From assembly GCA_031549115.1 (NCBI GenBank), contig JAVBQJ010000071.1, forward strand, positions 7,451-71,450: a stretch of DNA of 64,000 nucleotides. The letters are read 5' to 3'. The notes below the pieces were generated by a model. It was given only the letters and a program-made list of their open reading frames with translations, made no database searches and had not been told where the DNA came from. Every line of letters begins with the position of its first letter. The first letter of the stretch is position 1. The position numbers and the translations under genes were made by a program. The DNA is from Victivallaceae bacterium (GTDB lineage Bacteria; Verrucomicrobiota; Lentisphaeria; Victivallales; Victivallaceae). This document shows, piece by piece, positions 2,257 through 46,727 of this stretch.

Positions 2257-2283
2257 TTTTGCAAAAGAGAAGGGACGGCGAAA

Positions 2284-2952: not shown

Positions 2953-3019
2953 GTCGGGTTGCAAAGCCGGAGCAATAAAGCGATTTTTTTTTTGGACAGT
3001 CGGAGCAAGAGGAGTATCT

Positions 3020-6290: not shown

Positions 6291-6308
6291 GTTTTTTTTG
6301 TCTATAAT
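6281..6308 (+). promoter_or_regulatory. Sigma70-like promoter of pseudopilin cassette 2 (TTGACT, 16-nt spacer, TATAAT)
   Basis: Same -35/-10 and spacing as 2176..2203. Confidence 0.6.
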
Positions 6309-6345
6309 TATAAGCAGCTTGTTTCTTCTTTTTTTTTAGAAAAAT

Positions 6346-6365
6346 ATTTGAGTACGATATCAAAT
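6346..6365 (+). promoter_or_regulatory. Second copy of the 20-bp palindrome ATTTGAgtacgatatCAAAT
   Basis: Identical to 2237..2256 and similarly placed downstream of the -10. Confidence 0.55.
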
Positions 6366-6432
6366 TTAAGAAATAGTAACGATTGACGGAAAATACGGAC
6401 AAGAGCCAACATCAAACGAAAGGGATGATGAA

Positions 6433-7128
6433 ATGAAAAAAGGGAGTCGTTTTACACTCATAGAGCTTCTGGTGGTGATTGCGATCATCGCTATTCTCGC
6501 CAGCATGCTGCTGCCGGCGTTGAGCAAGGCGCGCGCCTCCGCGCAGAGCATCAAATGCCTGGGCAATAACAAGCAGATGGCGCTGGGGGCGTTGATGTAT
6601 GCCACCGACAACAATGAGTGGGTGCTGACCGGAGACCGTTCGAAAATGTTGGACGGCAAGGCATGGCCGGAGCAGCTGCGCCGGTACCTGGGCAGCCAGA
6701 AAATATTCGAATGCCCGTCGTACAGCAACGACCGCTATTCCGATACCGGATGGACATTCGACGACGGCGAATTGTACCAGGGTGCATACGGCATGAATGC
6801 CCGGATGGGGGCGGAGGACAATAATCCGCATACGGAAATTCACAAGCTGCCGGGGCCGACCGGCAATACCTTTCCGGTTTTCCTGGAAATCAACGGACCG
6901 TGCGGCCTGGCGTTGATTCACCTGTCCCGCGGCGAATCGGCGGCCAACCTGTGGGGCAAATATACCGACCGGCACAAAAACGGCGGCAACATCGTCTATT
7001 CGGACGGCAGCGCCAGATGGACCAGCTACGATGAATATTCTTCGTTGGTGGATAAGTCGAAAACCGCCGCCGGCGGCAAGATTCCGGGAGACTGGGGTGA
7101 CGCACTGGCGTTCATGCTCGGATACTGA
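6433..7128 (+). CDS. DUF1559 family prepilin-like protein (paralog of 2284..2952)
   Basis: N-terminus [38 protein letters not shown]-terminal ...YSDGSARW motif. Ribosome-binding site aagggatga precedes the ATG. Confidence 0.85.
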
Positions 7129-7158
7129 CCCGGATACGAAAAAAGGATTTGCACAAGA

Positions 7159-10100
7159 ATGAGTAAGTTACGTTTCTGGTACGGACTCCTGGTTTTGCTC
7201 ATCGGAGCCGGTGTGTATGCCGCTTCCGAAAGTCAGAGCTGGCAGGAGAATTTCGACTCCATCGACACGAAGCGCTGGAAGGTGATTCCGGCTTCGGCGG
7301 AGATCGTACCGACCGATCAATTGAGCGCCGCCAACCGGGCGCTGAAGCTGAATCCGGCGTTGGGGCAGCACTATATGACCACGTCGGACAAGTTCATCGA
7401 CGGCAGTTGTGAAATCCGCTTCAAGGCGAAGCGGCCGTCGTCGGGCGAACTGTTCTATTATATCGGCTTCCACGCCTATGAGCCGTGGGTGAAGGCGTTG
7501 TGCTGGATCATGATTCAGGGCGATACCGTCAGCTTCGGCGTCAAAACCCCGGACGGCGTGAGCCGGTCGGAAAAGCTGGCGGACCTGACCGACGGCTGGC
7601 ATACGCTCAAATTGCATTACTCATCCGATGCGATCTCTGCCGAATGGGATGGCGAGAAGACGCTGACCTACGACGACCCGGCGCTGTATTCCAGCGAGCC
7701 GATGCCGTTTTTCATCGGCGCGTATACCGTCGAAGGGACCAAAGATCCCGCCGAACTGATGGTCGATTATCTGAAAGTCACCGGCGGCAAGCCGGCGGCG
7801 ATAATGGCCCCGCGGACATTGACCGATGCCGAAAAAATGGTGATCGGCGTCGATTCCGTGGTGGCGGCGCAGTTGCCAGGCGAACGCTATGCGATCGCGC
7901 TGGACGGTGGCATGCACTGGCAATCGATTGACGCGGACGGTACCGAAATGCTGGCGCCGGACTTCTTCGCGCCGGTGTTCGGAGCGCGGATCGATGGGAA
8001 AAATGTCTTTTCGCACCAGTTCGAAGTCACCGGAGTGAAGCGCTCCGGCGACGCCTTCGCGGTCGAGCTCCTGTACCCGGAATCCGCGACTGCTGCGACG
8101 GTTTCGGGCGCGGTGAAGGACGGCCGCTTCCGGCTGGATCTGCAATTGCGCAATGACGACAAGCAGGAGCATCGGCTGCAGCCGGTGTTCCCGGTGGTCG
8201 GCAGCCTGGCGGTCGGCGGCGACTTCGCCGGAACCGAATACTTCTTTCCGTGGCGCGGCGGCGTCCTGGGGGACAATACCGCGTATTTTTCGACCGAGTA
8301 CGGCGGGCTGGGGTGGACGCAGTTGATGTTCGTGCTGGATCCCGCCTCCGGCCGCGGGCTGTACTTTTATCCGGAGGACGCCTCCGGCCGCTTCAAAGGC
8401 ATGTCGATGATCAAACAATTGATCGATACCAATGTCGACGTGTACCATACCGAATCGGTGATCGCCGAAGAGGTGCCGACGCTGGATATGCTGGAAAACC
8501 GTACCGGGTTGGTGATGAACTATTACTACCGGACCGAAACGGTCGCGCCTGGTGTCGCGGTGGAGGTGCCGGAAACTGTGTTCGGCAGCTGGCGGGGCGA
8601 CTGGAAAGAGCCGATGCGGCTCTATGCCGACTGGATGAAGTCGCAGATGCAGCCGGTGGAGGTGCCGCGCCAGTTCCGCGACAGCTTCACCTGGGGCAAC
8701 TGGCATCCGCCGGCCTATTACGACAAGCAGGCGCAGCGTTACGTCGGCCGCGAACGGCTGGCCGGCGGCGAAGACGCGCTGCAATGGGCCTTCTGGGATG
8801 ACTATGTCGAATATCCGGCCGATGCGAAAATCCCGTCGCTGCAGCGCTACCAGCTCGGCGACTTCGAGGTGAACCGCTCCCGTGGCGGGATGGAAACTTT
8901 CGCGGCCGAAATTGCCCGGATCCGTGAGGTCGGAACCCGCTTCTCGGTCTACATCGACCACCGTTTCTGCTGGCGCGAAACCAAGACCGCGCAGAAGTAC
9001 GCCGACGCGTGGGCGGTCAAGGACCCGAACGGCAAGCCGTACGGTTATACCTCCGATGAAGACTTGTACATGATGTGCTTCTACGATGCGGACAAGTGGG
9101 TGAACTATATGGCCGAAACCTGCCATGGGCTGATTCGCGACACCGGCATGGATACGATTTACCTGGACGAGCTCGGCATCGCGTTTCCCTGCTACAACAA
9201 GCTGCACAGCCATTATCAGGCGGGGGAGTATCCGACCGATCCGGTCGGCCTGGGGAAGGCGATGACGCTGGTACGCAATCGCATGAAAGAGGCCAATCCG
9301 GAAGCGGCGCTGATGACCGAACACGCCGGCAGCGACTATCTGACCCAGTTCTACGACGGTTCGTGGGACCAGACCTTTTACATGCATGCGTTCCCGTTCA
9401 CCGAGAAGTATTATGACGACCAGAAGATCTGCTACTTCCGTTTCATGTTCCCCAACTTCAAGTTGTCGGAATGGGGCGAGAGCCGTGATCACATCCGGCG
9501 CAGCTTCTTCAACGGCATGGGGTGGGACATGGGGGTGACGGACACCGATCTGTCCCGCACTCTGGCGCGGGTGCTGAAGGAGAACGGCGACGCGATTGCC
9601 ACCCTCCATCCGGAACCGATCGTCCCGACCGGCAACCCCGGTCTCTTGGCGAACCGTTTCGACGCCCCCGGAAAAGTGGTTTACACCTACTATAATAACT
9701 CCGAGGCGCCGCTGACCGCCGGAGTCTCCGAAGCCGCGCCGTTTGCCGGGCACTATGTCGAGCTGCGCCACGATGTCATGCTGGATTCCCCGGCCGTCGC
9801 CGTTCCCGCCGGTGAAGTCGCCGCGGTCGCTCTTTATCCGGAATTGCTGAAGCTGGAAGCCGACGGCAACAGCCGCCGGATCACCGCACCGGCGGCGCCG
9901 AATCAGGAGCTCGTAATCTGCGAAGGCGTTGACGATTCGCATTTTCTGCCGCCGCGCGGCACCTGGACGCGGATCGACTTCGCCTCCGGAGAAGCCGCGT
10001 ATGCGCCGCGCGACACCAACGCCAAGTTGATCGTCAAGCTGCTCCGCGACGGCTATCTCGTCGACGAAGTGGGGGGTGGACGGCAAAGACTCGGCGGGCC

Positions 10101-10317
10101 CGGCCGCACTCCCATCCGGTTGGGAGTGCGGACGGGCCCTTGCATTTTACCCGATATGGTGTTATCTTTTTATTTCATAAGCAATGAAACACCAAGGATA
10201 CGGGAGATCTTTTCATGGAGTTTACTCTTTGGAGTGAGGCGGGCGCGGCAATCGGTTCGGTGGCGGCGAACGGCACGGTGGGGCGCGATGTGCTCGACCG
10301 CGCCGGGGCGGTGTTGA
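7159..10317 (+). CDS. Large secreted lectin-like/TIM-barrel protein, cassette copy 2; annotated ORF carries an ~80-aa C-terminal read-through extension (probable lost stop)
   Basis: Signal peptide LLVLLIGAGVYAASE. Collinear with 3020..5971 up to ...LLRDGYLVDE at 10070. Copy 1 then has a stop, but copy 2 continues through a G-run (gtggggggtgg) and a terminator-like hairpin (10097..10139), and overlaps the next gene. The functional end is probably near 10070-10080. Confidence 0.7.
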   Translation: MSKLRFWYGLLVLLIGAGVYAASESQSWQENFDSIDTKRWKVIPASAEIVPTDQLSAANRALKLNPALGQHYMTTSDKFIDGSCEIRFKAKRPSSGELFYYIGFHAYEPWVKALCWIMIQGDTVSFGVKTPDGVSRSEKLADLTDGWHTLKLHYSSDAISAEWDGEKTLTYDDPALYSSEPMPFFIGAYTVEGTKDPAELMVDYLKVTGGKPAAIMAPRTLTDAEKMVIGVDSVVAAQLPGERYAIALDGGMHWQSIDADGTEMLAPDFFAPVFGARIDGKNVFSHQFEVTGVKRSGDAFAVELLYPESATAATVSGAVKDGRFRLDLQLRNDDKQEHRLQPVFPVVGSLAVGGDFAGTEYFFPWRGGVLGDNTAYFSTEYGGLGWTQLMFVLDPASGRGLYFYPEDASGRFKGMSMIKQLIDTNVDVYHTESVIAEEVPTLDMLENRTGLVMNYYYRTETVAPGVAVEVPETVFGSWRGDWKEPMRLYADWMKSQMQPVEVPRQFRDSFTWGNWHPPAYYDKQAQRYVGRERLAGGEDALQWAFWDDYVEYPADAKIPSLQRYQLGDFEVNRSRGGMETFAAEIARIREVGTRFSVYIDHRFCWRETKTAQKYADAWAVKDPNGKPYGYTSDEDLYMMCFYDADKWVNYMAETCHGLIRDTGMDTIYLDELGIAFPCYNKLHSHYQAGEYPTDPVGLGKAMTLVRNRMKEANPEAALMTEHAGSDYLTQFYDGSWDQTFYMHAFPFTEKYYDDQKICYFRFMFPNFKLSEWGESRDHIRRSFFNGMGWDMGVTDTDLSRTLARVLKENGDAIATLHPEPIVPTGNPGLLANRFDAPGKVVYTYYNNSEAPLTAGVSEAAPFAGHYVELRHDVMLDSPAVAVPAGEVAAVALYPELLKLEADGNSRRITAPAAPNQELVICEGVDDSHFLPPRGTWTRIDFASGEAAYAPRDTNAKLIVKLLRDGYLVDEVGGGRQRLGGPGRTPIRLGVRTGPCILPDMVLSFYFISNETPRIREIFSWSLLFGVRRARQSVRWRRTARWGAMCSTAPGRC
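10097..10139 (+). terminator. Terminator-like hairpin downstream of the conserved end of cassette gene 2
   Basis: gggcccggccgcactccca-tccggt-tgggagtgcggacgggccc (about a 17-bp stem) followed by ttgcatttta. Confidence 0.5.
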
Positions 10318-11831
10318 CGATCAAAGGTTTTGTCCCCTATATCGACGCGGCCGGCTATTGGCACAGCGATCTGGAACGGTTGGCGCCAATGGAGCTGCCG
10401 TGGGTGATCGAGTTCACTTGCGGCGCCAACCGCAGTTTCCCATTCTGGTGTCTGTATAACCAGTCCTATCGCAACTGCGCGGCGGTCGGGTTGACCGATT
10501 GCTTCGACGACTGCCGGGTGCGGGCGAAAATGAATCAGGAAGCCGGTGGCTACGAGCTTTCGTTTGCGCTGTCGGTGGCGCCGGAAACTGAAGCGTTCCG
10601 GGTCTGGGTCGACGCACGGCCGGTTCCGTTTCCGCAGGCGGTGGCCGGGTTTCGGCACGAACTGCTGCCGGCGGCGCCGAAGTACCCCGAAGGGGCGTGG
10701 AATCCGGTTTATTGCACCTGGTACGCGGTGCATACGGTGTTGTCGGAGGCGTATCTGGAGGAGAATGCCCGGATTGCCCGGAAGCTAGGCTTCGGTACCT
10801 TTATCGTCGACGACGGCTGGTGTCTGGACGACAGCAAGCGGGTGACGCCGGCGACCCTGCCGACCTGGTACGAATGGATCGGCGACTGGAAGCTGTCGGA
10901 GAAGAAATTGCCGCAGATGAAGCGGACCATCGCCAGAGCGCAGGCCGACGGCTGGAATTATATGTTCTGGGTGGCGCCGTTTTTTGTCGGCGACCGCAGC
11001 GAACTGGCGCGGCGGGTATCCGATTATCTGACCGATTCGCACGAAGGACAGCGCTTGCTCGATCCGCAGGATCCGGAGATGGCGCAGTTCACGATGGAGA
11101 GCATCCTGAAGGTTTTCCGCGACCTCGAGCTCGACGGGTTGAAAATCGACTTCATCGACATCATCCAGCCGGATGAAAAGCGGCCGCGCAGCCGGGCGGC
11201 GTTCCGCTATGCCGAAGAGCTGGTGCGGCGGATCCGGGAGGTCAAGCCGGAGGCGCTGATCGAATTCCGGCAGAATTACGGCACGCCGGTGATGGCGGGG
11301 CTGGCGACGGCGTTCCGCGCCGGCGACGTGCCGTTCGATTATGTCGAAAACTTCGAACGCTGCGTGCAACTGCGGCTGCTGTTGGGCGACGGCGTGCCGG
11401 TGCATGCCGATCCGGTGTATTTCCGCAACGACGAAACTCCGGTGAACGTGGCGCGGCACATGATGGCGGCGATGGCGGGAGTGCCGATGCTGTCGATGGA
11501 TCTGCGGGAATTGACGGCGGAGCAGTTGACGATCATCGGTAATTATCTGGCGCTCTACCGGAAGCAACAGACGGTGTTGAATTTCGGACATTGGGAGTTC
11601 CGGTTCAGCTTCGGGCATACCCCGTGGGCGCGCTGTAGTCATGAAAGTGGCACGGTGGTATTCGTCTGGGAGCGGGAGTTTCTGGCGCCGGCGCTCGAGG
11701 GCGTGACCGGGTCGGTGACGGTGCTGAACCTGAGCGACGCAGCGCTGTCCATGCCCGGAATGACCGGCTTCGACGCCGCCGGGAAAGCTACCGGTGATGT
11801 CGCCCCCGCCGGCGGGCGCCTGGAGAACTGA
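10215..11831 (+). CDS. Alpha-galactosidase-like glycoside hydrolase (clan GH-D, GH36/GH27-like)
   Basis: Motifs FIVDDGWCLDD and GLKIDFID resemble the DDGW and KxD catalytic regions of GH27/GH36 enzymes. Ribosome-binding site gggagatctttTCATG. 538 aa. Family-level call only. Confidence 0.6.
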   Translation: MEFTLWSEAGAAIGSVAANGTVGRDVLDRAGAVLTIKGFVPYIDAAGYWHSDLERLAPMELPWVIEFTCGANRSFPFWCLYNQSYRNCAAVGLTDCFDDCRVRAKMNQEAGGYELSFALSVAPETEAFRVWVDARPVPFPQAVAGFRHELLPAAPKYPEGAWNPVYCTWYAVHTVLSEAYLEENARIARKLGFGTFIVDDGWCLDDSKRVTPATLPTWYEWIGDWKLSEKKLPQMKRTIARAQADGWNYMFWVAPFFVGDRSELARRVSDYLTDSHEGQRLLDPQDPEMAQFTMESILKVFRDLELDGLKIDFIDIIQPDEKRPRSRAAFRYAEELVRRIREVKPEALIEFRQNYGTPVMAGLATAFRAGDVPFDYVENFERCVQLRLLLGDGVPVHADPVYFRNDETPVNVARHMMAAMAGVPMLSMDLRELTAEQLTIIGNYLALYRKQQTVLNFGHWEFRFSFGHTPWARCSHESGTVVFVWEREFLAPALEGVTGSVTVLNLSDAALSMPGMTGFDAAGKATGDVAPAGGRLEN

Positions 11832-12130
11832 CGGGGGGTGGCGGGGTGGCAAAGACGGGGGGGCCCCCCCGCCCCCACGCCCCCCGGCAGGGTCACCGAC
11901 CCTGCACCTCTGCTCCAGATGCTTTCGGCATCTTCCGCGACCATTTTTTCAGGGAGGAGCGCTTGTTGCCGCGTCAGGCCGGCCAGACCACCCCAAAAGC
12001 CGCCCTCTCTGCCGGCGACACACGTCCGGTCCCTCCGGGGGAAACCCGTCGTTTTGTCCGTTGTCGTCCGTGTCAGTCCGTTGCCGTCCGTTGTTGTGCG
12101 CACACCCGCCGCACCAGCGGCGAATAAAAA
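11832..12130. repeat. GC-rich intergenic element with a G7C7 palindrome, a cagggtcaccgaccctg hairpin and a decamer microsatellite
   Basis: gggggggcccccccg palindrome. Shares ccccccggcagggtcaccgaccctgcacctctgc modules with 5990-6030 and 24430-24460. Four tandem gtccgttg(t/c)c units at 12055..12097. The ORF start at 11794 is an artefactual extension through this element. Confidence 0.5.
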
Positions 12131-12153
12131 ACAAAAAAGCGCAGAGGAAAATC

Positions 12154-19101: not shown

Positions 19102-19818
19102 ATGAACCGGAAAAATGGGAAAGCTTCCGATTCTCGGAACCGCGGCCGGAGTTTTACTTTGATAGAACTCCTGGTCGTGATCGCGATCATTGCGATTCTC
19201 GCCAGCATGCTGCTGCCGGCCCTGTCCAAGGCGCGGGCGGCGGCGCAGAATATCAAATGTGTCAACAACTTCAAGCAGATCGGCCTGGCGGCGGCGATGT
19301 ACCAGGGCGACAACAAAGACACGCTGGCGACCGGAAGGAATGGATTCTATGGCGGCACCGGCGAATGGGCCGGGCGTTTTCAGGGTTGGTGGCTGGATCT
19401 GGCGGTGACCGGATATCTGCCGGACGATTACGCCTATGACTGGTTCAGTGCCATCAACACGTTGGGCCACAAAGCCCTGGCTTGCCCGGTCATGGTCAAC
19501 AGCGGCGAGCGCTACAACTACGGCATCAACGAACTGCTGACCGGAGAATACTGCGGGTCGTTCCTGTATGGACGTACAAACTACGGAATGGCGACCGGCT
19601 TCGAAAATCCGTCGGGGCGCGCTTATCTGCTGGAGCCGACCGCCCGCGGCGACGGCATGTACATTTATACCACATTGGACACCGGCCGGGCGGTGGAGCG
19701 CGACCGTCACGGCAACTCCAGCAATGTGCTCTTCCTCGACGGCCATGCGGAGAGCATCCGTAAGGACGCGTTGAAAGATAGCCGCATCGAATTCCCCTGG
19801 AACGAAGCCACCGAATAA
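19102..19818 (+). CDS. DUF1559 family prepilin-like protein
   Basis: [41 protein letters not shown]-terminal [14 protein letters not shown] (the DUF1559 LFxDGHV motif). Ribosome-binding site gaaaggagtcgatgtcATG. Confidence 0.85.
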
Positions 19819-19822
19819 CCGG

Positions 19823-21760
19823 ATGAATTGCCTGATTATGGAAGAGCATACTTTGATCCCGCGCCCGGAATATCCGCGTCCGCGTTTCGTCCGCCACCTG
19901 CCGTGGCAAAATCTCAATGGCCGCTGGCGCTTCGCCTTCGATCCCGGCAAAAGCGCCGCCGCCCGGGGGCTGGCCCGGAATCCCGAGCTTTACGACCGGG
20001 AAATTCTGGTGCCGTTCTGCCCGGAGAGCCGGTGTTCCACCATCGAATGCACCGACTTCATCGAAGCCTGCGCCTATTGCCGCGAATTCGAGATTCCGGC
20101 CTCCTGGGCGGAATACCGGATTCTGTTACACTTCGACGCGGTGGATTACCGCTGCCGGGTCTATGTGGACGGCGTCGAAGTCGGCGGCCATGCCGGCGGC
20201 GGCACCGGTTTCGAGTTCGAACTGGATATCGTTCCGGGCAAACACCTGCTGGCGGTGCTGGTCGCCGATGAGGTGCGTTCGGGGCGGCAGGGGGCGGGCA
20301 AACAATGCGCCTCCTATGCTTCCTTCGGATGCGACTACACCCGGGTCACCGGCATCTGGCGCACGGTCTGGCTCGAAACGGTCGCCGACGGCGCGCTCAG
20401 AAGCTGCGGGATTGTCCCCAATATCGATACCGGATGCGTGCTGCTGACGCCGGAATATTACCGCGCCCGTTCCACCGACCGGCTGCAGGCGGCGGTGCTG
20501 GACGGTGGCGTGGTCGTCGCCGAGGCGGAGTACGCGGTGGCGGCGGGAATGCCGCTGTCCATGGCAATTCCGGCTCCGGTGAAGTTGTGGAGTCCGGAGT
20601 CGCCGTTCCGCTATGAACTGCGGCTGCGAATCGAGCGTGACGGCGCCGTCGTCGACGAGGTGTCCGGCTATTTCGGCATGCGCAAAATCCATTGCGAAAA
20701 CGGCGTGTTCCATCTCAACAACCGGCCGTTTTTCGCCCGGCTGGTGCTGGATCAGGGGTATGATCCGGAGGGCCTCTGGACGGCGCCCTCCGATGCGGCT
20801 TTCGAGGATATGATCCGGAAAGCCAAAGCGCTCGGCTTCAACGGCGCCCGGCTGCACCAGAAGTTGTTCGAAGACCGCTATCTGGATTGGGCCGACCGGC
20901 TCGGCTTCGTGGTCTGGAGTGAATATCCGAGCTGGGGGCTGGATTTGCACGCCGCCGAAGCGCGGGAAAACTTTCTGCGCGAATGGCGCGAGGCGGTGGC
21001 GGAGCGGGTGAATCATCCGTCGGTGATCGCGTGGGTGCCGTTCAACGAAACCTTTCTCTTTCCCACTCCCGAGGGCAAGATGCGGGCGTTTCCGGATCCG
21101 GAGGCGCTGGCGGCATACCGGAACTTCATCACCGAAGTCTACGATCTGACCCGGCAGCTGGATCCGAGTCGCCCGGTGTGCGACGCGAGCGGCTGGTATC
21201 ATGTCAAAACCGACTTGTGGGCGGTGCACCTGTACCGCCCCGACGCGGCCGCGCTGCGTACCGCCTTGCGGGATGACGCCCCCTTTGTGATGGTGCCGGA
21301 ATACGAAGCGCCGTACGGCGGCCAGCCGTTTTTCGTCGACGAATGGGGCGGCTTCCGCTTCGTCGCCGATCCGGCGCGGCAATCGGCCTCCAATGCCTGG
21401 GGGTACGGCACCGATCCGGAGACGCGGGAGGAGCTGCTCGCCAAAATCGCCGAACAGCTTGATGTCCTGTTGGAAACGCCGGGACTTCAGGGCTATTGTT
21501 ATACCCAGTTGACCGATATTGAGCAGGAGGAAAACGGACTCCTGACTCCCGAACGCGAACCGAAGGCGCCGTTTGCCGACTTTTACCGGCTGTTCAGCCG
21601 GCAACCGAAAGATTTTTGCTATGAAACGAATGCCGCTTCTGATTTTCATGATTCTGATTTTGCATGCCGCCATCGGCGGGACCGAGCCGATGATTCCGCG
21701 TCTGGACTGGGAGCCGCGCTCCGATTGGGTGAGCGTCAAAACGCCGAAAACCTGGCATAA
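19823..21760 (+). CDS. Glycoside hydrolase family 2-like protein (beta-galactosidase/beta-mannosidase/beta-glucuronidase family)
   Basis: N-terminal sugar-binding jelly-roll. Motifs NGARLHQKLF and IAWVPFNE resemble the GH2 TIM-barrel acid/base region. No signal peptide. The last ~50 aa look non-homologous and overlap the next gene by 140 bp, so the true C-terminus is uncertain. Confidence 0.7.
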   Translation: MNCLIMEEHTLIPRPEYPRPRFVRHLPWQNLNGRWRFAFDPGKSAAARGLARNPELYDREILVPFCPESRCSTIECTDFIEACAYCREFEIPASWAEYRILLHFDAVDYRCRVYVDGVEVGGHAGGGTGFEFELDIVPGKHLLAVLVADEVRSGRQGAGKQCASYASFGCDYTRVTGIWRTVWLETVADGALRSCGIVPNIDTGCVLLTPEYYRARSTDRLQAAVLDGGVVVAEAEYAVAAGMPLSMAIPAPVKLWSPESPFRYELRLRIERDGAVVDEVSGYFGMRKIHCENGVFHLNNRPFFARLVLDQGYDPEGLWTAPSDAAFEDMIRKAKALGFNGARLHQKLFEDRYLDWADRLGFVVWSEYPSWGLDLHAAEARENFLREWREAVAERVNHPSVIAWVPFNETFLFPTPEGKMRAFPDPEALAAYRNFITEVYDLTRQLDPSRPVCDASGWYHVKTDLWAVHLYRPDAAALRTALRDDAPFVMVPEYEAPYGGQPFFVDEWGGFRFVADPARQSASNAWGYGTDPETREELLAKIAEQLDVLLETPGLQGYCYTQLTDIEQEENGLLTPEREPKAPFADFYRLFSRQPKDFCYETNAASDFHDSDFACRHRRDRADDSASGLGAALRLGERQNAENLA

Positions 21761-23948
21761 CCTGATCGCCGCCGGTGACGGTGTTGCCGACGATACCGCC
21801 GGCTTGCAGATGACGATCGCCATGGCGGCGCCGCAGGGGGGCACCGTTTACCTGCCGCCGGGGCGCTACCGGATTACCGATACGCTGCTGGTCGGGACGC
21901 TCCAGGAAAGCTCTGCCACGCGCCCGGAAGGTTTTTCGCTGATCGGCCACGGCCGCGATACCGTAATCGTCTGGGACGGTCCCGACGATGTGCCGATGGT
22001 GCGGTTGCTCGGAATCAGTGTGTCGCGGATCGTCGGAGTGACCTTCGACGCCGGCAACCGGGCGTCGAGCGTGCTGGAAATGGGGGGACCCGGTTTTCAG
22101 GCGCACAATCTGTTCCGGCATTGCGCGTTTTTGAACGCGAAGTTCGCCGGGATCGATACCGGGCGCAAGCGTATGAACACGGCGTGCACCGAGCAACGGA
22201 TCGACAACTGCCTGTTCGTCAATTGCGGGCGCGGCGTCAGCCTCGGCGACTTCAACGATTACGACTGCGTGATCGAGGGGAGCGAATTCCGCGACTGCGA
22301 TTACGGCGTGTGGACGTTCAAAGGGAACTTCTATTGCCGCGACAGCCACTTCGAACGCAGCCGCGAGGCGGACTTCCGGATCGAATCGGAACACACCAGC
22401 ACCATCCGGCGCTGCACCTCGACGGGCTCCAACCGCTTTCTGATCCAGCGTTCGCCACACTGTGGTACGGTAATTCAGGATTGCCGGGTGGCCGATTGGA
22501 AAGCCGCCGACGGCGCGATCCTGCAGAATATCGTCCCGGCGATGATTTTCGACAGTGTTTTCTCCGGCGCCGGACCGGTGATCCGCTTCATTCACACCGA
22601 CAGCGAGTCGTTGGTCGGCTGCAATAAAGGGGAGAATTCCAAGTACTTCAAGTTGATTTCCAGCGGCAACCGGATTGAAAACGCGCGTCCGTATCAGGCG
22701 GAGGCGGAGGTGCGGGTCTACGATATCCCGGTGACCGGTGATATGCCGGATTCCGGCCTCTCTGCGGCCACTTCGTTCCTGAAGACCCGCGCGGTTCACG
22801 GCGTCTGGAGTCCGGAAGCGCGCACCGCGGCAATTCCGGGAAAAATCTTCGACGTCAAGCGCGATTTCGGCGCCAAAGGCGGCGAGTACGACGACACCGA
22901 GGCGTTCCGCCAGGCGATCGCCGTCGCGAAAGCACACGGCAACGGTGCATTCGTCTACATGCCGCCGGGGCATTACACGGTGCGCGAAACCCTGAAGCTG
23001 GACGGCGACAACTATTACTTCGGCGGCAGCGGCGTCCGGTCGATCCTGTCGTGGTACGGTGCGGAAAACGGCACGCTGCTGCATGTGGATGCGCCGAAGC
23101 GGCTGGGGCTGGAGGGCTTCGAAACCATGCGGCTGGGCGGTCGCAAGGACGGCATCGACATCCTCCATACCGGAGGCGGCTCGGAGGAGTCGTTCACGAC
23201 CTACGACACGGTCCGGGTGTTCGGTTTCCTGACGCCGCAGCCGCTGGTGCGGGGGCTGCGTTTCCGCAATCTCGGCGCCAACGACCGGGTGGTGTCGAAA
23301 GGAACCTTCGGCAATTTGCACTTCATCGATTCGCAGGCGGCGGAAATCCTGTTCAACAACCATTACGAAGGCGTGATATTGGTCGAGGGCAAAAATCCGG
23401 AACGCACCGGTCTATTGGCATTTCAGTTCGCGCTGCTGGAGCTGTGCGATCCGTGTCTGTGGATCAAGGACAACAATTCGCTGGTGATGACCGACTTTTA
23501 CAATGAGCAGAGTACGTCGCTGTACCGCTTCGAGGGCAATGGCTCGCCGGAGCGCGGGCGGATTTCGCTCGGCTCGATCAAGGTGGAAGCGGTGCCGCGT
23601 TACGTCGAGGGATTCCAGGGCGAGATCACGCTCGGGACACCGCAGTATTACCAAAACAGCCTTCATGGACGCAGCCGCTTCGACAACGACGAAGCCTCCG
23701 ACGTCGATTACCTGGAGTTGGGCGGCTATTACTTCGTCCACAGTCTGGATTGGAACCGCCACCCCGGATTCCGGGCGCGCTTCCTCGGGACGGGAGGCGG
23801 GCCCGACAAAGATACCACGGCAGAGGAATTTCTGCGGCGCTATACGGATTCCATCGATCCCGAAGCATTGGAGCAGGCGGCGCGTTTCTTCCACGACATG
23901 CGCCGGGTCGGGGAATTGGATCTGCGTCTGAATTTCCCCGGTATCTGA
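21621..23948 (+). CDS. Secreted tandem right-handed beta-helix protein (two pectate-lyase-superfamily domains; GH55-like)
   Basis: Signal peptide MKRMPLLIFMILILHAAIGG. Two occurrences of the GDGxxDDTxA motif (AAGDGVADDTAGLQ; DFGAKGGEYDDTEAFRQAI), each followed by beta-helix-like repeats. A two-beta-helix architecture is characteristic of GH55 exo-beta-1,3-glucanases. The ORF track start at 21573 is upstream of the signal peptide. Confidence 0.65.
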   Translation: MKRMPLLIFMILILHAAIGGTEPMIPRLDWEPRSDWVSVKTPKTWHNLIAAGDGVADDTAGLQMTIAMAAPQGGTVYLPPGRYRITDTLLVGTLQESSATRPEGFSLIGHGRDTVIVWDGPDDVPMVRLLGISVSRIVGVTFDAGNRASSVLEMGGPGFQAHNLFRHCAFLNAKFAGIDTGRKRMNTACTEQRIDNCLFVNCGRGVSLGDFNDYDCVIEGSEFRDCDYGVWTFKGNFYCRDSHFERSREADFRIESEHTSTIRRCTSTGSNRFLIQRSPHCGTVIQDCRVADWKAADGAILQNIVPAMIFDSVFSGAGPVIRFIHTDSESLVGCNKGENSKYFKLISSGNRIENARPYQAEAEVRVYDIPVTGDMPDSGLSAATSFLKTRAVHGVWSPEARTAAIPGKIFDVKRDFGAKGGEYDDTEAFRQAIAVAKAHGNGAFVYMPPGHYTVRETLKLDGDNYYFGGSGVRSILSWYGAENGTLLHVDAPKRLGLEGFETMRLGGRKDGIDILHTGGGSEESFTTYDTVRVFGFLTPQPLVRGLRFRNLGANDRVVSKGTFGNLHFIDSQAAEILFNNHYEGVILVEGKNPERTGLLAFQFALLELCDPCLWIKDNNSLVMTDFYNEQSTSLYRFEGNGSPERGRISLGSIKVEAVPRYVEGFQGEITLGTPQYYQNSLHGRSRFDNDEASDVDYLELGGYYFVHSLDWNRHPGFRARFLGTGGGPDKDTTAEEFLRRYTDSIDPEALEQAARFFHDMRRVGELDLRLNFPGI

Positions 23949-24480
23949 GGAGTGGAGGGGGGAATGTGGTGATTATGCTAGTGGATGCGGGACCAAGTCC
24001 CGACAACCGCGGGGGCCTGGCCCCCATTCCCCCGGATCGCTCGGCCGCTCGGCTTCACGTATTTGCCGCCAATTGGCGGCAAATACTCTGTTCGCTGTTC
24101 ACTCCCTGCCGGTCGTTCGGGCGCGACCCCCTCAGCGCGCGAAAGCGCGCCGTTCGCCGGGGGAGGCTCCGTGCCGTGCTCCTTGGCGTCTGCTTCGCGC
24201 CGCCAATTCCTAACGGCACGGTCGCGCCTGACCGGCGCTCCCCCGTGCGCGATCGCAGGTTGATGGTTGGCGTCAGGCGTGTGAATCATGTCGAGTCCAC
24301 ATCCACGGCACACCGGCCGTTGGGGGCGCGCCACGGACAGCGGTATGGCACGCCATATCGCCGCGTCCTTTGCGTCTTTTGCGTCATTTTCCATGCGCAC
24401 GCTAGCCCAACCGGCATTCGCAGCAGAGGTGCAGGGTCCTGTGACCCTGCCGGGGGGCATGGGGCCGAGGAGCCCCCACA
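23949..24480 (+). repeat. About 500-bp GC-rich dispersed repeat, copy 1 (MITE/REP-like); contains a 28-bp perfect palindrome
   Basis: About 95% identical as a reverse complement to 50207..50700. The ORFs inside (24288..24551 + here and 50175..50408 - there) encode the same MSSPHPRHTGRW... peptide. Ends carry aatgtggggg/ccccacatt motifs. Palindrome GTATTTGCCGCCAATTGGCGGCAAATAC at 24059..24086. Confidence 0.7.
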
Positions 24481-25650
24481 TTAAACGTAGGAGCTTTCCA
24501 CCTCGATATGTGCCCGGAGACGCGGATCGGCGCGATGCAGTTCCGCCATGATGCGGCGTTGGATTTCCCGGTGTTCGAGGGGATAATCGCGCGGCACCAC
24601 GACATCGAATGCCACGCGGATTTCCCGTTCCGACCGGCTGGCGATCCGGAAATCGTGGATTTGCAGAAACGGGTCGATTTTGCCGACGATATCCTCTGCG
24701 AGGCCGGTCAGCCGCCGTGTTTCCGGATCGCTCGGGTCGATCGGGTCATAGTGCAGCGTCAGGTGCATATGCAGCTCCTGGCCGATCGATTTTTCTGCCC
24801 GGTCGAGCACATTGTGCAGCGAAAACGGGTCGTTGCGGTAATCGGCCACCGCGTGGGCGCTGGCGATATAGCGGTTTGGTCCGTAGTTGTTGATGATGAT
24901 ATCGTGGACGCCGAGAATTTCCGGCACCGCCAGCAAACGCTGGCGCAGCTTCTGCACCAGTTCGGCATCGGGACGCGTTCCCAGCAGCGGGCTGACCGTG
25001 TCCCGGATGATTTTCACGCCGCCGTAGATCACGAAACCGCCGACCAGGAATCCGAACCAGCCATCCAGGGGGAAGGGGGTCAACGGCGCCAGCGCCAACG
25101 ATAAAATCGTCAGCGACGTCACCAGCACATCGGACAAGCTGTCGAATGCCGCCGCCCGCACCGCCTCGGAGTCGATCAAACGGCCGATATAGCGGTTGTA
25201 GCCGTACATCCACAGCTTCAGCGCCAGCGAGGCGATCAGGATTGTCAAGGCAAGCCAACTGAAGAAGACCGGTTGCGGATCCCGGACCCGCTCCAGCGAA
25301 CTGCGCAGGAACTGCAACCCGACCGCGACGATCAGAAATGCCACCGCCAGTCCGGCGATGTATTCCATCCGTCCGTGACCGAACGGATGATCCTCGTCCG
25401 GCGGCCGTTCCGACATCCGGAAGCCCGCCAGCGTGACAATGGAGCTGGCTGCGTCGGAAAGGTTGTTGAAGGCATCCGCGGCAACGGCGATGCTGTTGGC
25501 TGTCAGCGCAATAAACAGCTTGACCGCGAAGAGAGCGAAGTTGCAGACGATGCCGAGTGCTCCGGCCAGAGTCCCGTACGCACCGCGGACCTTGGCGTCC
25601 TGCGTCCGGGTGTGGTCGCGAATAAAGAGCCGGACCAATAAGCGAATCAT
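24481..25650 (-). CDS. Cation diffusion facilitator (CDF) family metal efflux transporter
   Basis: Six transmembrane helices with signature SIAVAADAFNNLSDAASSIVTL and HGHGRMEY motif. C-terminal cytoplasmic domain. ATG at 25650 with ribosome-binding site GGAGG. The ORF track start at 25932 is an unlikely extension. Confidence 0.85.
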   Translation of the reverse strand: MIRLLVRLFIRDHTRTQDAKVRGAYGTLAGALGIVCNFALFAVKLFIALTANSIAVAADAFNNLSDAASSIVTLAGFRMSERPPDEDHPFGHGRMEYIAGLAVAFLIVAVGLQFLRSSLERVRDPQPVFFSWLALTILIASLALKLWMYGYNRYIGRLIDSEAVRAAAFDSLSDVLVTSLTILSLALAPLTPFPLDGWFGFLVGGFVIYGGVKIIRDTVSPLLGTRPDAELVQKLRQRLLAVPEILGVHDIIINNYGPNRYIASAHAVADYRNDPFSLHNVLDRAEKSIGQELHMHLTLHYDPIDPSDPETRRLTGLAEDIVGKIDPFLQIHDFRIASRSEREIRVAFDVVVPRDYPLEHREIQRRIMAELHRADPRLRAHIEVESSYV

Positions 25651-25678: not shown

Positions 25679-28186
25679 TCAGAAGCCGAATTCCGGCTGA
25701 ACGATGCCGAGATCATCCAACGAATCCCGCTCGGCGGATTGCGGTTCCCGCTCCGGCGGCGGTGGGGGGGGAACTTCCACAGCAGGGCGCAGCGGTCGTT
25801 TCCGTGCCGGACGCCGGGCGTCCGGCGTCTCTTCCAACACGAAATCCCCGGTCTTTGCCGTGTCCGGAGCAACCGCTTCCGGCTGCGGCTCTTCCACGGC
25901 TTCGGTTGTTTCGATGCTCTCCACAACTTCAACGGTTTCCGTTACTTCGACAACCTCTGCAACTTCGACGGTTTCCGTTATTTCGATGCTCTCCACGACT
26001 TCGACGGTCTCCGCAATTTCAACGGTTTCCACGATCTCGACGGTTTCCGTTACCTCGATGGTCTCCACGACTTCGACGATTCCGGGCGCCGTTTCCGGCA
26101 CTTCCACGCTACCGCTGTCGACATCGTCGTCATCGGTGCCGTTCGACTCGCGCGGCGCCGCATCGGCGGCGAGCAGGACTGCCATTTCCTCCGGCTCCAG
26201 ATAGCGCTGCCAGGTCAATTTTTCCAGCGATTTGCCGTTGAAAAGCATCAGGCCTCGGGCTTTGGCGGAACGGACCGCCAGCGTCAGCACGTTGAACTCC
26301 TGCTTTTCCTTGCTGCGTTTGTCCGCGACGACGGCTTCGTAAACCGCGTCCGGGCGCGGCGTGAACAAATCCACCCGGCAGTTTTCCGGGCACAGATTGT
26401 AAACGCGGTCGGTGATGAATTTGTCGATTTTGCAGCGCTTGCCGTAAAACTTCCCGGTTTTGTTTTCCCGGTATACCACCCCGAACTCGATGGCCGGATC
26501 GTATTTCCGGAAGTCGTACAGCTTGCCGATGAAGATCTTTTCCGGGCGCGGAATGATCTTATATGCGCCGTTGCGCTCGAGGCACAACAGCTTGTCGAAT
26601 TCATTGACCAGTACGCTGTCGTCGCTCTTGACACCGGTGCCGATGTAGCCGTTTTTCCGGTCCCAACCGACTTTGATGTTGTTGAGCGCGGCTTCGCGCG
26701 GGTCGATCTTTTCCAGATTTTCGATTTCGGTGCGGCGCGGGAAACGGGGGCCGTACTTTGCCAGCAGCGCTTCGAGGTACTTGATTGCGTAGGATTTCAG
26801 ATGCTTGAGGTTCTTTTCGACCGTGTCCATCTGGGCCAGGATATCGGCGATCTCCTCCTGGTTCTTGCGGATGTCGAACAGCGAAATCCGCCGGATCTGC
26901 AACGCCAGCAGCTTCTCGATGTCTTCGGGGGTGATGTCGCGGCGCAGCATGTGCCGGAACGGCGCCAGTCCCTCCAACACCGCCAATTGCACCGCGTCGG
27001 CGGTCACGCACTCCTCGATCTTTTTGTAAATCCGGTTCTCGATGAAAATCTGCGCCAGCGTTTTGGAGTGGAACAATTCGCTCAGCCGTTCGTATTCCAA
27101 CTCCAGTTCGCGCTGCAGATAATACAGCAGCTTTTCGGTGTTGCGCCGGATCACGCTGTCGACATTCATCTCCACCGGGTGGCCTTCGCAGATCACCATC
27201 ATGTTGACCGAGATCGACTTCGAGCAATCAGTATAGGTATAAAGCGCCTGCAGCGCCTTTTCCGGGTCGTAACCGCGGGTCGGCACGATTTCGATCTCGA
27301 CCTTTTCGGCGGTATAATCGTTGATCGTCGCGATCTTGATCTTGCCCTTTTCCACCGCGCGCTCGATCGACGCGATCAGGCTTTCGGTGGTGGTGGAGGC
27401 CGGAATTTCATGGATCAGGAGTTTGCGCCCGTCGATGTCGATTTTCGCCCGCAGAATGACCTTGCCGTTGCCTTTCGCGTATTCGCGCACGTCCATCAGC
27501 CCGCCTTGCAGGAAGTCGGGGTAAAGCTCGAAGTCTTCGCCGCGCAGCACCGCGATCTGGGCCTGCAGGAGTTCATTGAAGTTGTGCGGCAAAATCCGCG
27601 TGCTCATCCCGACCGCGATGCCTTCGGTGCCGAGCATCAATAGCGACGGGATTTTCACCGGCAGCACCACCGGCTCCTGGTTGCGGCCGTCGTAGGAATC
27701 GACCAATTCGGTGATGCTGTTGTTGAACAGCACCTCTTTGCCCAGCGGCGACAGCCGGCACTCGATGTAACGCGGCGCCGACGCGCAGTCGCCGGTGTAG
27801 ATATTGCCGAAGTTCCCCTGCCGGTCGATGAAATATTCCTTGTTGGCCAAAACCACCAGCGCATCGCCGATGGAGGCGTCGCCGTGCGGGTGAAACTGCA
27901 TGGTGTGGCCGATCACGTTGGCGACCTTGTGGAATTTGCCGTCGTCGAGGCGCATCAGGCTCCACAGGATGCGCCGCTGCACCGGTTTGAGGCCGTCGTC
28001 GACATCCGGGATGGCGCGGTCTTTGATCACGTAGCTCGCGTATTCCAGGAAGTTGCGGTCGATCATCCGCGACAGATATTGATTGGTATTCTGGTCCCGC
28101 TGCGCTTCGACCGCTCCCGAATCCAACGCTTCCGGCTCGCTGTCGCTGCCGGCGGCCTCATACTTGATTTCTTCGTCCGTGGTCAT
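25679..28186 (-). CDS. Type IIA DNA topoisomerase subunit A (GyrA/ParC family; ParC-like, no GyrA-box seen) with acidic tandem-repeat C-terminal tail
   Basis: N-terminal breakage-reunion domain: AIPDVDDGLKPVQRRILW...HPHGD...IAVGMST. C-terminal ~60 aa is a hexapeptide repeat (VETIEV/TETVEI...). ATGA overlap with the upstream subunit B gene. Confidence 0.85.
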   Translation of the reverse strand: MTTDEEIKYEAAGSDSEPEALDSGAVEAQRDQNTNQYLSRMIDRNFLEYASYVIKDRAIPDVDDGLKPVQRRILWSLMRLDDGKFHKVANVIGHTMQFHPHGDASIGDALVVLANKEYFIDRQGNFGNIYTGDCASAPRYIECRLSPLGKEVLFNNSITELVDSYDGRNQEPVVLPVKIPSLLMLGTEGIAVGMSTRILPHNFNELLQAQIAVLRGEDFELYPDFLQGGLMDVREYAKGNGKVILRAKIDIDGRKLLIHEIPASTTTESLIASIERAVEKGKIKIATINDYTAEKVEIEIVPTRGYDPEKALQALYTYTDCSKSISVNMMVICEGHPVEMNVDSVIRRNTEKLLYYLQRELELEYERLSELFHSKTLAQIFIENRIYKKIEECVTADAVQLAVLEGLAPFRHMLRRDITPEDIEKLLALQIRRISLFDIRKNQEEIADILAQMDTVEKNLKHLKSYAIKYLEALLAKYGPRFPRRTEIENLEKIDPREAALNNIKVGWDRKNGYIGTGVKSDDSVLVNEFDKLLCLERNGAYKIIPRPEKIFIGKLYDFRKYDPAIEFGVVYRENKTGKFYGKRCKIDKFITDRVYNLCPENCRVDLFTPRPDAVYEAVVADKRSKEKQEFNVLTLAVRSAKARGLMLFNGKSLEKLTWQRYLEPEEMAVLLAADAAPRESNGTDDDDVDSGSVEVPETAPGIVEVVETIEVTETVEIVETVEIAETVEVVESIEITETVEVAEVVEVTETVEVVESIETTEAVEEPQPEAVAPDTAKTGDFVLEETPDARRPARKRPLRPAVEVPPPPPPEREPQSAERDSLDDLGIVQPEFGF
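25870..26110. repeat. Intragenic 18-bp tandem repeat (about 10 units) encoding the acidic [VI]ET[VI]E[VI] tail of topoisomerase subunit A
   Basis: Units such as ttccgttacttcgacaac / ctctgcaacttcgacggt / ttccgttatttcgatgct are visible on the + strand. Translated on the minus strand they give VETIEVTETVEIVETVEIAETVEVVESIEITETVEV... Confidence 0.7.
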
Positions 28187-32040: not shown

Positions 32041-32054
32041 TCGTCATGAGATAA

Positions 32055-32300
32055 CAAAAAAATAGAGCCGCCATTCATGGCGGCGGTCTGCTCTCCGTCA
32101 TACGGAGGCGCGGTCCAGCAGGCGAATACTGCTGGTCGATGCGAAGCGAAAACGAGGGGCTTGTCCCCGAGGGGGAAGAGCAAGCTCACGAATGTGAGCG
32201 TAGCGAGAGCGGAAGCCACCCAAGGTAGCGATGGTGTAGGGAGAGCGAAGCGATTCCCGGAGCATAGAGCGGACGAGGCATCGCATCGGCGATGAGGACA
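32055..32300 (+). repeat. About 230-bp hairpin-rich repeat, family B copy 1 (candidate REP element or small ncRNA)
   Basis: aaaaaaaTAGAGCCGCcattcatGGCGGCGGTCTGCtCTCCGTCATACGGAGGCGCGGTCCAGC... Shares this ~70-bp head and downstream modules (gccacccaaggtagcgatggtgtag) with 42213..42443 and, inverted, with 34020..34262. Confidence 0.6.
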
Positions 32301-32309
32301 TAACGGTAG

Positions 32310-32963
32310 ATGAGGGAAAGAATGGCGGGAAAACGGCGTACTGCTTATTTCGGGGGCACCTTCGATCCGGTGCACGAGGGGCATATCGGGTTGGCGCAGG
32401 CGGTGGTGAAGCACGGCTTTTCCGACCGGGTGTGGTTCGCTCCGGCTTTCGTGCCGCCGCACAAGCGCCGGCGCCGGATCACCGCGTACGTCCACCGGCT
32501 GAATATGTTGACGCTGGCGCTGCGGGGGCTGGATGCCCTGGAGGCGACGGATTTCGAAGCCCGGATTGCGCTGAACCCGTCGTACAGCTGCGAGGTGATG
32601 CGGCGGCTGCGGGCGGCTTATCCGGAGGAGCACTGGCAGCTCCTGATCGGTGCCGACAGCCTGCTGGAACTTCACGGCTGGTTTCAGGCGAAAACGCTGG
32701 TAAATGAATGTGAAATCCTGACGGCGCCGCGTCCCGGAGTCGTTGTGACGCAGGAGTTTCTGATAAAAAACTGGGGTGTGGAAAACGGGGGGCGCTTGTA
32801 CCGCTCTTTGCTGCCGCTGCCGGAATTCGACGCCTCGTCGACGAAAATAAGAGAAAAAGTTGCCAACCGGGTTGTACTTCCGGAAATTCAGTCGTATATT
32901 GAGATGTGCGGACTTTATGAGGGAGTAACCGGAGGAGAGGAAAATTGGAAAACAAAGCATTGA
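32310..32963 (+). CDS. nadD: Nicotinate-nucleotide adenylyltransferase
   Basis: YFGGTFDPVHEGH (HxGH nucleotidyltransferase motif). C-terminal ...SSTKIRE (the SxTxxR region). Start may instead be the ATG at 32322. Confidence 0.85.
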   Translation: MRERMAGKRRTAYFGGTFDPVHEGHIGLAQAVVKHGFSDRVWFAPAFVPPHKRRRRITAYVHRLNMLTLALRGLDALEATDFEARIALNPSYSCEVMRRLRAAYPEEHWQLLIGADSLLELHGWFQAKTLVNECEILTAPRPGVVVTQEFLIKNWGVENGGRLYRSLLPLPEFDASSTKIREKVANRVVLPEIQSYIEMCGLYEGVTGGEENWKTKH

Positions 32964-33996: not shown

Positions 33997-34019
33997 GCTA
34001 TTCGGTAATAGATTCACCG

Positions 34020-34262
34020 CTGGGGCGGTGCCTCGTTCGCTCTCTGTGTAGATCGGATTGTCGCTCACGCTTCCACTCCGATCTACACCATCGCTACCTC
34101 GGGCGGATCCGGACCGCCTCCCGGCGGTCCTTACTTAGGATTTCGCCCCTTTCGAGGCGCTGCGCGCCTGGGGGCGACCAGCGCAATTCGCGCGCTGGAC
34201 CGCGCCTCCGTATGACGGAGTGCAGACCGCCGCTGCGCGGCTCTATTTGATTTTTTTTTATT
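34020..34262 (-). repeat. Family B repeat, inverted copy
   Basis: The reverse complement reads aaaaaaatcaaaTAGAGCCGCgcagcGGCGGTCTGCACTCCGTCATACGGAGGCGCGGTCCAGC...ccgggaggcggtccggatccgcccgaggtagcgatggtgtagatcgga...tccgatctacac. The stem tagatcgga/tccgatcta replaces tagatttgaccg/cggtcaaatcta of copy 3 (compensatory changes). Confidence 0.6.
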
Positions 34263-42194: not shown

Positions 42195-42212
42195 AAATAA
42201 AAAGAAGAAAAT

Positions 42213-45483: not shown

Positions 45484-45526
45484 GATTCCGCTCCTTTTAG
45501 TTACGGTTGTTATGATGACTTGTGTA

Positions 45527-46717: not shown

Positions 46718-46727
46718 GGGTTCCGGT

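Follow-up and report, generated by a model that had tools for sequence, protein, structure and literature searches.

The window, that is, the whole 64,000-nt stretch of DNA analysed here, carries a 0.5-kb GC-rich repeat in two copies of opposite orientation, located 26 kb apart, each between convergent genes. The pair is real and not a chance resemblance: an nhmmer comparison of copy 1 with copy 2 gives an E-value of 1e-123, and the inverted, ca. 95% identical pair described in an earlier note on this DNA was recovered with arms of 96–97% identity. We regard the repeat, with as much doubt as confidence, as a lineage-specific, non-coding, hairpin-built dispersed intergenic repeat of the REP/BIME, MITE-like or species-specific-repeat kind. 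It is placed in this broad kind, and not called a MITE or a BIME, because the features that define a MITE proved absent or equivocal and only the 3' module of the unit is REP-like. The host is a Victivallales (Lentisphaerota) bacterium. Its ParC shares 80% identity with a protein of GCA_031547325.1 and 70% with ParC of Victivallis sp. Marseille-Q1083; its prepilin/DUF1559 paralogs fit the PVC group, and the proteins encoded in the window are singletons at 90% identity in the protein collection.

The repeat pair and its genomic setting

Copy 1 occupies positions 23958–24482 of the plus strand (525 nt) in the spacer between a beta-helix gene and a gene for a CDF transporter; its G+C content of 66.7% is about 7 points above the 59.9% of the window. 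Copy 2, on the minus strand, occupies positions ca. 50218–50742 in the spacer between a GH36 alpha-galactosidase gene and a small membrane ORF, the latter itself following a flotillin gene, likewise on the minus strand. The 5' edge of copy 2 carries an uncertainty of about 15 nt, and a hairpin at 50733–50750 may be part of the copy. Copy 2 reaches ca. 50742, possibly 50750, and not 50700 as given in the earlier note.

Each unit consists of a high-identity core with more diverged ends. The core lies at 23999–24443 (plus strand) in copy 1 and at 50253–50692 (minus strand) in copy 2, the two being 95–97% identical. A repeat search resolved it into two gap-free inverted arm pairs, 23999–24187 with 50504–50692 (97% identity) and 24199–24444 with 50252–50497 (96% identity), separated by a short rewritten stretch, and the homology was extended beyond the arms to the full units by MAFFT and nhmmer. 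The core alignment comprises 445 columns, of which 421 are identical, 19 mismatched and 5 gapped; a single hairpin tip holds 6 of the 19 mismatches plus a 5-nt indel, and the longest identical run between the copies is 72 nt. The outer 35–45 nt at either end are homologous, yet mostly 55–68% identical (56–68% over the ca. 45 nt of the 5' end, 52–60% over the ca. 40 nt of the 3' end), and the transitions from core to end identity are sharp. On either side the similarity ends inside the spacer and does not run on into the flanking genes, and the flanks of the two full copies are unrelated. The units thus have discrete ends, in keeping with the interpretation in the earlier note, and a segmental duplication is rejected.

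The 5' end of copy 1 is found 10 nt past the stop codon (23946–23948) of the beta-helix/pectate-lyase-fold gene (21573–23948), and its final two bases overlap the stop codon (24481–24483) of the convergent cation-efflux (CDF) gene, located at 24481–25650 on the minus strand. In the case of copy 2, the 5' end lies ca. 30 nt past the stop codon of the small membrane ORF (50774–51136, minus strand), of which no record was found in Logan, and the 3' end lies 11 nt from the stop codon (50204–50206) of the convergent GH36 alpha-galactosidase gene. The earlier statement that both copies begin after the stop codon of a glycosidase gene does not hold, as it refers to the 5' end of copy 1 and the 3' end of copy 2, i.e., to different ends of the unit. 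What the two copies do have in common is a convergent (tail-to-tail) spacer filled by the unit, each copy being co-oriented with its upstream gene and its 3' hairpin abutting the stop codon of the convergent gene. The interval between the copies carries parC, parE, rpsB, tsf, a nadD-like gene, hrpA, metG, and sugar-utilisation genes.

Logan, an independent assembly with k = 31, includes contigs of the same organism (SRR23967709). They reproduce the 3' junctions of the units base for base, on the CDF side of copy 1 and on the GH36 side of copy 2. One contig (L001) matches 45400–50287 exactly and ends 30 nt beyond 50257, the last base distinguishing copy 2 from copy 1; a de Bruijn graph would merge both paths there. 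Another contig (L024) matches 26019–24429 and stops 20 nt sooner than the two copies alone predict. This early end hints weakly at another copy sharing 24429–24458 and differing at 24459, though low coverage could account for it as well.

Hairpins, the 28-bp palindrome and the dispersed 3' module

The unit is a chain of local palindromes. In copy 1 the 5' hairpin, CGGGAC-CAA-GTCCCG, comes first and is followed by a second one, GGGGGCC-TGG-CCCCC, and then by the perfect 28-bp palindrome GTATTTGCCGCCAATTGGCGGCAAATAC (24059–24086). Between the palindrome and a long compound hairpin of 88 nt (24158–24245, plus strand) lies the hairpin GCGCGC-GAAA-GCGCGC, and the compound hairpin is succeeded by the pairing GCGGTATGGC/GCCATATCGC, by a T-rich triple motif, CCTTTGCGT CTTTTGCGT CATTTTCC, and by the last hairpins, GCAGGGTC-CTGT-GACCCTGC and a terminal G-rich one. 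The equivalent of the compound hairpin in copy 2 is 83 nt long (50451–50533, minus strand). Its tip (24184–24207 in copy 1) is the sole rewritten stretch of the core, reading TTGGCG..CGCCAA in copy 1 and TTGGCCGC-GAT-GCGGCCAA in copy 2, and the stem forms in both. The same is true of the other two most diverged stretches, the 5' hairpin and the 3' hairpin. The predicted folding energy of the whole unit is -274.5 kcal/mol (z -5.6 against shuffles), and its complement folds nearly as well (z -4.5), because the palindromes are symmetric at the DNA level. The presence of the perfect 28-bp palindrome in each copy is confirmed, that of copy 2 being located at 50605–50632; within the window its half-site is confined to these two places.

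The last 30–70 nt of the unit form a REP-like hairpin module, of which the window has three further, separate occurrences. In copy 1 the module (24422–24482, plus strand) comprises AGCAGAGGT, then GCAGGGTC-CTGT-GACCCTGC, and then a degenerate G-rich hairpin ending in CCCCCACATT, and in copy 2 (50218–50274, minus strand) it contains the well-formed hairpin GGTGTGGGGGAC-GAGGA-GTTCCCCACATT. A solo module at 11860–11925 (minus strand), 29 nt downstream of the stop codon of the gene at 10215–11831, is 84% identical to copy 1 over 64 nt. A diverged one at 53570–53640 (plus strand) shows 69% identity over 75 nt and includes an exact GACGAGGAGTCCCC, the sequence being found at 53612 and again at 62132. 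The latter position falls within the third, a solo hairpin AATGTGGGGGAC-GAGGA-GTCCCCCACAT at 62123–62150 (plus strand; 28 nt, 11-bp stem, z -5.75), situated in the 44-nt spacer between a convergent ROK-family gene and a xylose-isomerase-like TIM-barrel gene. The module therefore has five instances in 64 kb, four of them within 30 nt of a stop codon, and this spread after stop codons is REP-like behaviour. The trait of REP/BIME elements, an imperfect, G+C-rich, dispersed intergenic palindrome of 20–40 nt, is displayed by the 3' hairpin module only and not by the 445-nt core.

The spacer at 11.85–12.13 kb may hold a degenerate member of the family with a different interior. The tentative unit (11850–12135, minus strand) would combine a 5' hairpin, CGCCGCYGGTSCGGCGGGTGTG (12101–12122), with the 3' module, and its interior of ca. 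170 nt is unrelated. A hairpin CGCCGCTGGTGCGGCGGGTGTG, ca. 170 nt upstream of the 11.9-kb module and on the same strand, resembles the hairpin just 5' of copy 2.

Traces of mobility, distribution and recombination

The terminal inverted motifs aatgtgggg/ccccacatt proposed in the earlier note are complementary over only 7 nt (AATGTGG and CCACATT), and the 3' CCCCACATT, which forms the right-hand arm of a local hairpin, cannot be taken simply as half of a terminal inverted repeat. The hairpin carrying it also occurs alone elsewhere in the window, at 62.1 kb, and the left arm of the 3' hairpin opens with the same 7 nt as the 5' AATGTGG. In copy 2 the corresponding ends are GGTGTGG and CCACATT, with 5 Watson–Crick pairs. 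No target-site duplication was found around either copy, the flanking bases being GGGGGG and AAACGT for copy 1 and CGGCGG and CATTCT for copy 2. A G-rich motif, (G)nNNTGTGG, recurs near both ends of both copies; since its 3' occurrence trails the 11.9-kb solo module too, it is part of the unit itself and not of the target, and was rejected as a target-site duplication. Among the ca. 45 ORFs of the 64-kb window that were scanned there is no gene for a transposase, a RAYT/Y1 transposase, a reverse transcriptase, or an integrase.

The MITE trait of being short, non-coding, and present in several copies at unrelated sites is seen in the repeat (525 nt, two full copies). The MITE/REP-like nature suggested earlier agrees with its general character (non-coding, GC-rich, hairpin-rich, tail-to-tail, with a shared REP-like module), but not with the absence of a target-site duplication, the marginal terminal complementarity, and the lack of a transposase gene in the window. 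A composite transposon, already discounted in the earlier note, is rejected: IS ends and a transposase are lacking, neither repeat has coding capacity, and the housekeeping genes parC, parE, rpsB, tsf, metG, and hrpA lie inside.

Searches for relatives of the element returned none. BLASTN in the distant mode against plasmids and phages, and exact-pattern scans of viral contigs, revealed no relative; a 20-mer from the centre of the palindrome matched 9 loci in 185,579 species-representative genomes, all of them chance palindrome matches of 20–21 nt. In the JGI metagenomes a 22-mer from the core gave 0 matches and the 3' module pattern gave 3 chance matches in low-GC contigs. A six-frame translation used as a protein query, aimed at spurious ORFs annotated on other copies, gave no match, and the exact 167-aa ORF of copy 1 is absent from the protein collection. 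No homolog was found in ca. 100 kb around the parC and flotillin orthologs of five related Victivallales genomes (loci L015–L023), which were reached via ParC and flotillin homologs. As these searches relied on exact words or on a small sample, the absence of relatives is only moderately informative, and as synteny at both loci is not conserved in the relatives, they provide no empty site for comparison.

A stretch of 445 bp at ca. 97% identity, with identical runs of up to 72 bp, is an adequate substrate for homologous recombination, and the pair is a plausible one. The large inversion envisaged in the earlier note thus has a suitable substrate, but the GC skew of the 24.5–50.2 kb interval has the same polarity as that of the left flank and so bears no trace of a current inversion between the copies; an inversion of the interval that shows in the skew was rejected. 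The cumulative G-C curve has its maximum at 50703, the 5' edge of copy 2, and the per-gene all-site skew flips its sign between the GH36 gene and the genes to the right of copy 2, whatever the gene strand. A sharp skew breakpoint at copy 2 was not reproduced by the third-codon-position skew, whose change-point fit is diffuse, with the best breaks at 46.7–58.9 kb. The skew switch near copy 2 is suggestive only, and may stem from the terminus, from a breakpoint of inversion located at a repeat copy, or from noise.

Alternative explanations and known systems

A protein-coding gene or pseudogene was rejected: copy 2 has a frameshift and a stop codon within the 167-aa minus-strand ORF that is the longest of copy 1, the codon positions share the 13 clean core substitutions evenly (5/4/4), and Pfam showed no match in any frame of the unit. 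That the unit acts as a structured RNA, either a ca. 0.5-kb paralogous ncRNA gene or a 3'-UTR element read through from the upstream gene, is unlikely; such an RNA would end or stabilise transcripts in the convergent spacers. The very stable predicted fold (z -5.6), the orientation of both copies like that of the upstream gene, the stems kept in the three diverged stretches despite their changed sequence, and the far better conservation of the core than of the ends are consistent with it. RNAalifold on the two copies gave 159 pairs with 0 broken, including one long-range double change from G-C to A-U (columns 95/491) and six changes involving G-U, and on the given strand T exceeds A and 13–23 G-U pairs are allowed against 8–16 on the complement, a weak lean towards that strand. 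However, the reverse strand folds almost equally well and gives an alternative fold with as many "consistent" pairs. When the 13 core substitutions are threaded on the minimum free energy fold of copy 1, 6 pairs are broken against a random expectation of 4.6 (P=0.93; 5 pairs, P=0.94, on the other strand), and the 2 double changes found between the only two sequences are equalled in 134 of 500 shuffles; these two controls take away the apparent support for an RNA. Rfam yielded no match at the gathering score, none at E<=1 for the window and, even at E<=10, nothing beyond chance level for the element; searches for tRNA and tmRNA were likewise negative, and of the known families, group I and II introns, RNase P, tmRNA, tRNA, OLE, GOLLD, ROOL, and HEARO were rejected. 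Neither a sigma-70-like promoter nor an intrinsic terminator was found at the unit, the sequences upstream of the two copies have nothing in common, and a homolog is absent from the loci of the relatives. Two copies at 97% identity provide no statistical power and hence no usable covariation, and an RNA function has no positive support. A separate three-copy repeat in the window (at 32.0, 34.1, and 42.3 kb) displays genuine covariation and is a better RNA candidate than the 0.5-kb pair.

A one-off duplication of an intergenic segment, kept similar by gene conversion and having neither family, nor mobility, nor function, is quite unlikely. It would agree with the documentation of two full copies only, with the failure to find features of transposition, with the high identity of the core and low identity of the edges expected from conversion between old duplicates, and with the finding that ca. 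77% of species-specific repeats have just two copies (PMC3372372). Against it are the independent occurrence of the 3' module at 11.9, 53.6, and 62.1 kb, the possible third unit at 11.85–12.13 kb, the break of contig L024 20 nt ahead of the two-copy prediction, and the location of both copies in convergent spacers, which points to selection for the places in which copies survive. An undescribed structured element of ca. 0.5 kb confined to a lineage of the Victivallales is doubtful. It could be a large ncRNA with a core under purifying selection, which would explain 97% identity in the core against ca. 60% at the ends, or a hairpin-dependent, single-stranded-DNA non-autonomous mobile element targeting REP-like hairpins at gene ends; if either form were true, the inverted copies would mark breakpoints of rearrangement, such as the skew switch near copy 2. 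It is very unlikely that the unit is an element of recombination, with the palindrome, read as 11-6-11, serving as a site for a tyrosine recombinase or another dimeric DNA-binding protein, or with the pair serving as an inversion switch or breakpoint. The identity of the perfect palindrome in both copies and its restriction to them in the window would suit this, as would the cumulative G-C peak at the edge of copy 2 and the change of the all-site skew sign there. Yet an 11-6-11 layout can be assigned to every palindrome of 28 bp, a site of complete symmetry lacks polarity, no recombinase gene is present in the window, the third-codon-position fit puts the skew switch anywhere in 46–58 kb, and the interval between the copies shows no reversed skew. 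A dif site in particular was rejected, since a palindrome present twice cannot be a unique dif; its arms are also unlike the dif consensus, and a scan for dif-like patterns found none near 50 kb. The least probable explanation is an artefact of assembly, with a single copy placed twice or the contig chimeric at copy 2. A metagenome-type contig with singleton proteins and the skew switch near copy 2 might raise such a suspicion, but 19 core mismatches and two indels separate the copies, their diverged ends and their flanks are different as well, their identical runs of at most 72 nt would let large-k assemblers resolve them, and the independent Logan contigs reproduce both 3' junctions.

The dispersed intergenic repeat, the preferred explanation, is favoured by the tail-to-tail placement of both copies and of the 62.1-kb solo hairpin. 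Speaking against it are the presence of only two full copies, the ends less conserved than the core, which is the reverse of a typical MITE, and the length of 525 nt, exceeding that of classical REP/BIME or ERIC units. According to this explanation, the unit would have been copied in the past to a second, and probably a further, site, either by a transposase acting in trans and encoded elsewhere in the genome, or by recombination-based duplication, and would have persisted in convergent spacers because insertion is presumably least harmful there. From the contrast between the core (96–97% identity) and the ends (55–68%) we infer that both copies are probably old and that their core has been homogenised by gene conversion between them; recent copying of the core alone seems less likely. 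Any effect on the cell would be exerted through DNA or RNA hairpins, which could obstruct or terminate convergent transcription, and the pair would offer 445 bp of homology for RecA-mediated exchange. If the dispersed-repeat explanation is true, a lineage-specific intergenic repeat family is added to the poorly studied phylum Lentisphaerota, and the repeat explains the fragmentation of short-read assemblies of the host at these sites. The element would matter more if the conservation of the core reflected a function, as of a large structured RNA, if the copies drove inversions of the 26-kb block with its topoisomerase IV, ribosomal, and tRNA-synthetase genes, or if a hairpin-recognising transposase partner existed.

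REPs are G+C-rich imperfect palindromes present at several intergenic sites, mostly just past stop codons. The 3' hairpin AATGTGGGGGAC-GAGGA-GTCCCCCACAT is similar to them in being a 28-nt, G+C-rich, imperfect, intergenic palindrome located mostly after stop codons. In comparison with REP/BIME elements and with REPINs and their RAYT transposases (PMC2817692), however, the 445-nt core does not consist of REPs in alternating order and the window contains no RAYT gene. With bacterial MITEs, which are non-autonomous derivatives of IS elements, the repeat shares its short, non-coding, structured nature, its location at unrelated loci, and its breaking of short-read assemblies; unlike them, it has no clear terminal inverted repeat (7 nt, in part a local hairpin), no target-site duplication, and no known parental IS, and its ends are its least conserved part. 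A comparable class of long intergenic repeats are the CIR repeats of Caulobacter, reportedly described by Chen and Shapiro in 2003.

More than half of prokaryotic species carry species-specific intergenic repeats, which mostly number two copies (PMC3372372). The present repeat resembles them in being longer than 100 bp, intergenic, confined to one lineage, and of the two-copy kind often found there, as well as in the proposed link to gene conversion or regulation (PMC3372372); the group is a descriptive category and not a mechanism. The intergenic repeat families of Pseudomonas fluorescens (R0, R2, IR1_g, and others) are 24–357 bp long, have a G+C content above the genome average, and form hairpins (Silby et al. 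2009, PMC2718517). They have conserved inverted-repeat ends, a variable core, and tens to hundreds of copies, and some share inverted repeats with a resident IS (PMC2718517), whereas the present element, at 525 bp, has a conserved core, variable ends, two full copies, and no known IS partner. The P. fluorescens families also show a strong bias towards a tail-repeat-tail placement, explained as the "least worst" location (PMC2718517). Like them, the repeat described here is non-coding, raised in G+C content, hairpin-forming, placed tail to tail, lineage-specific, and a suspected substrate of intragenomic recombination (PMC2718517).

REP-like hairpins and a contig end within copy 1

The window carries a G+C-rich family of REP-like hairpins, AATGTGGGGGAC-GAGGA-GTCCCCCACAT and its variants, which are intergenic and in most cases no more than 30 nt from a stop codon. 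Each copy of the 0.5-kb repeat has a hairpin of this family as its 3' end, and the family also occurs at solo intergenic sites, 11860-11925, 53570-53640, and 62123-62150. In the independent k=31 assembly of the same organism (Logan SRR23967709), one contig, L024, corresponds to 26019-24429 of the window and stops inside copy 1 (23958-24482, plus strand), 20 nt before the end predicted from the differences between the two copies. Its early end implies either another copy in sample SRR23967709, having 24429-24458 in common and differing at 24459, or a coverage gap.

The surroundings of copy 2

Between copy 2 (ca. 50218-50742, minus strand) and the flotillin gene lies a small minus-strand ORF (50774-51136) of 116-120 amino acids, whose predicted product is a membrane protein with a strongly charged tail. 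It has no Pfam match, and three related genomes have no counterpart downstream of the flotillin gene; the ORF may be lineage-specific, or it may be no real gene. The polarity of strand composition flips within ca. 46,000-58,000, with cumulative G-C reaching its maximum at 50703; taken over all sites, the plus strand is G-rich to the left of the switch and C-rich to the right, regardless of gene orientation. A third-codon-position fit localises the switch poorly, as a diffuse change, and its coincidence with copy 2 holds at low resolution only. The switch could mark the replication terminus or an inversion breakpoint, or it could be noise.

A tandem duplication, and repeats within genes

A tandem duplication of ca. 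4.1 kb (2130-5971 and 6235-10072, 70-94% identity) has a unit comprising a prepilin-type/DUF1559-like gene and a gene coding for a DUF6259 protein of 1040-1050 amino acids; the N-terminal prepilin segment is found again at 19133-19319 and 45292-45472. The ParC C-terminal extension, the part not covered by homologs, bears an in-frame tandem repeat of an 18-nt (6-aa) unit (25891-26081), and the flotillin (Band 7) gene contains five in-frame tandem repeats of 66 nt (22 aa) at 51878-52259.

A three-copy intergenic family

A second intergenic repeat family, unrelated to the 0.5-kb repeat, comprises three copies of ca. 240-260 nt, at 32052-32310 (plus strand), 33997-34262 (minus strand), and 42207-42445 (plus strand), 77-86% identical to one another and each immediately preceded by an A-rich tract (…AAAAATAGAGCCGC). 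Their consensus fold contains 65 pairs, with 93.5% of cells paired versus 30-46% in slid controls, and 10 compensatory double changes versus 0-2, a result matched by none of 500 shuffles. An Rfam search relaxed to E<=1 gave no match, and neither the loci compared from relatives nor viral contigs yielded a homolog. The family probably represents a novel structured RNA in multiple copies; as an RNA candidate it is far better than the 0.5-kb repeat.
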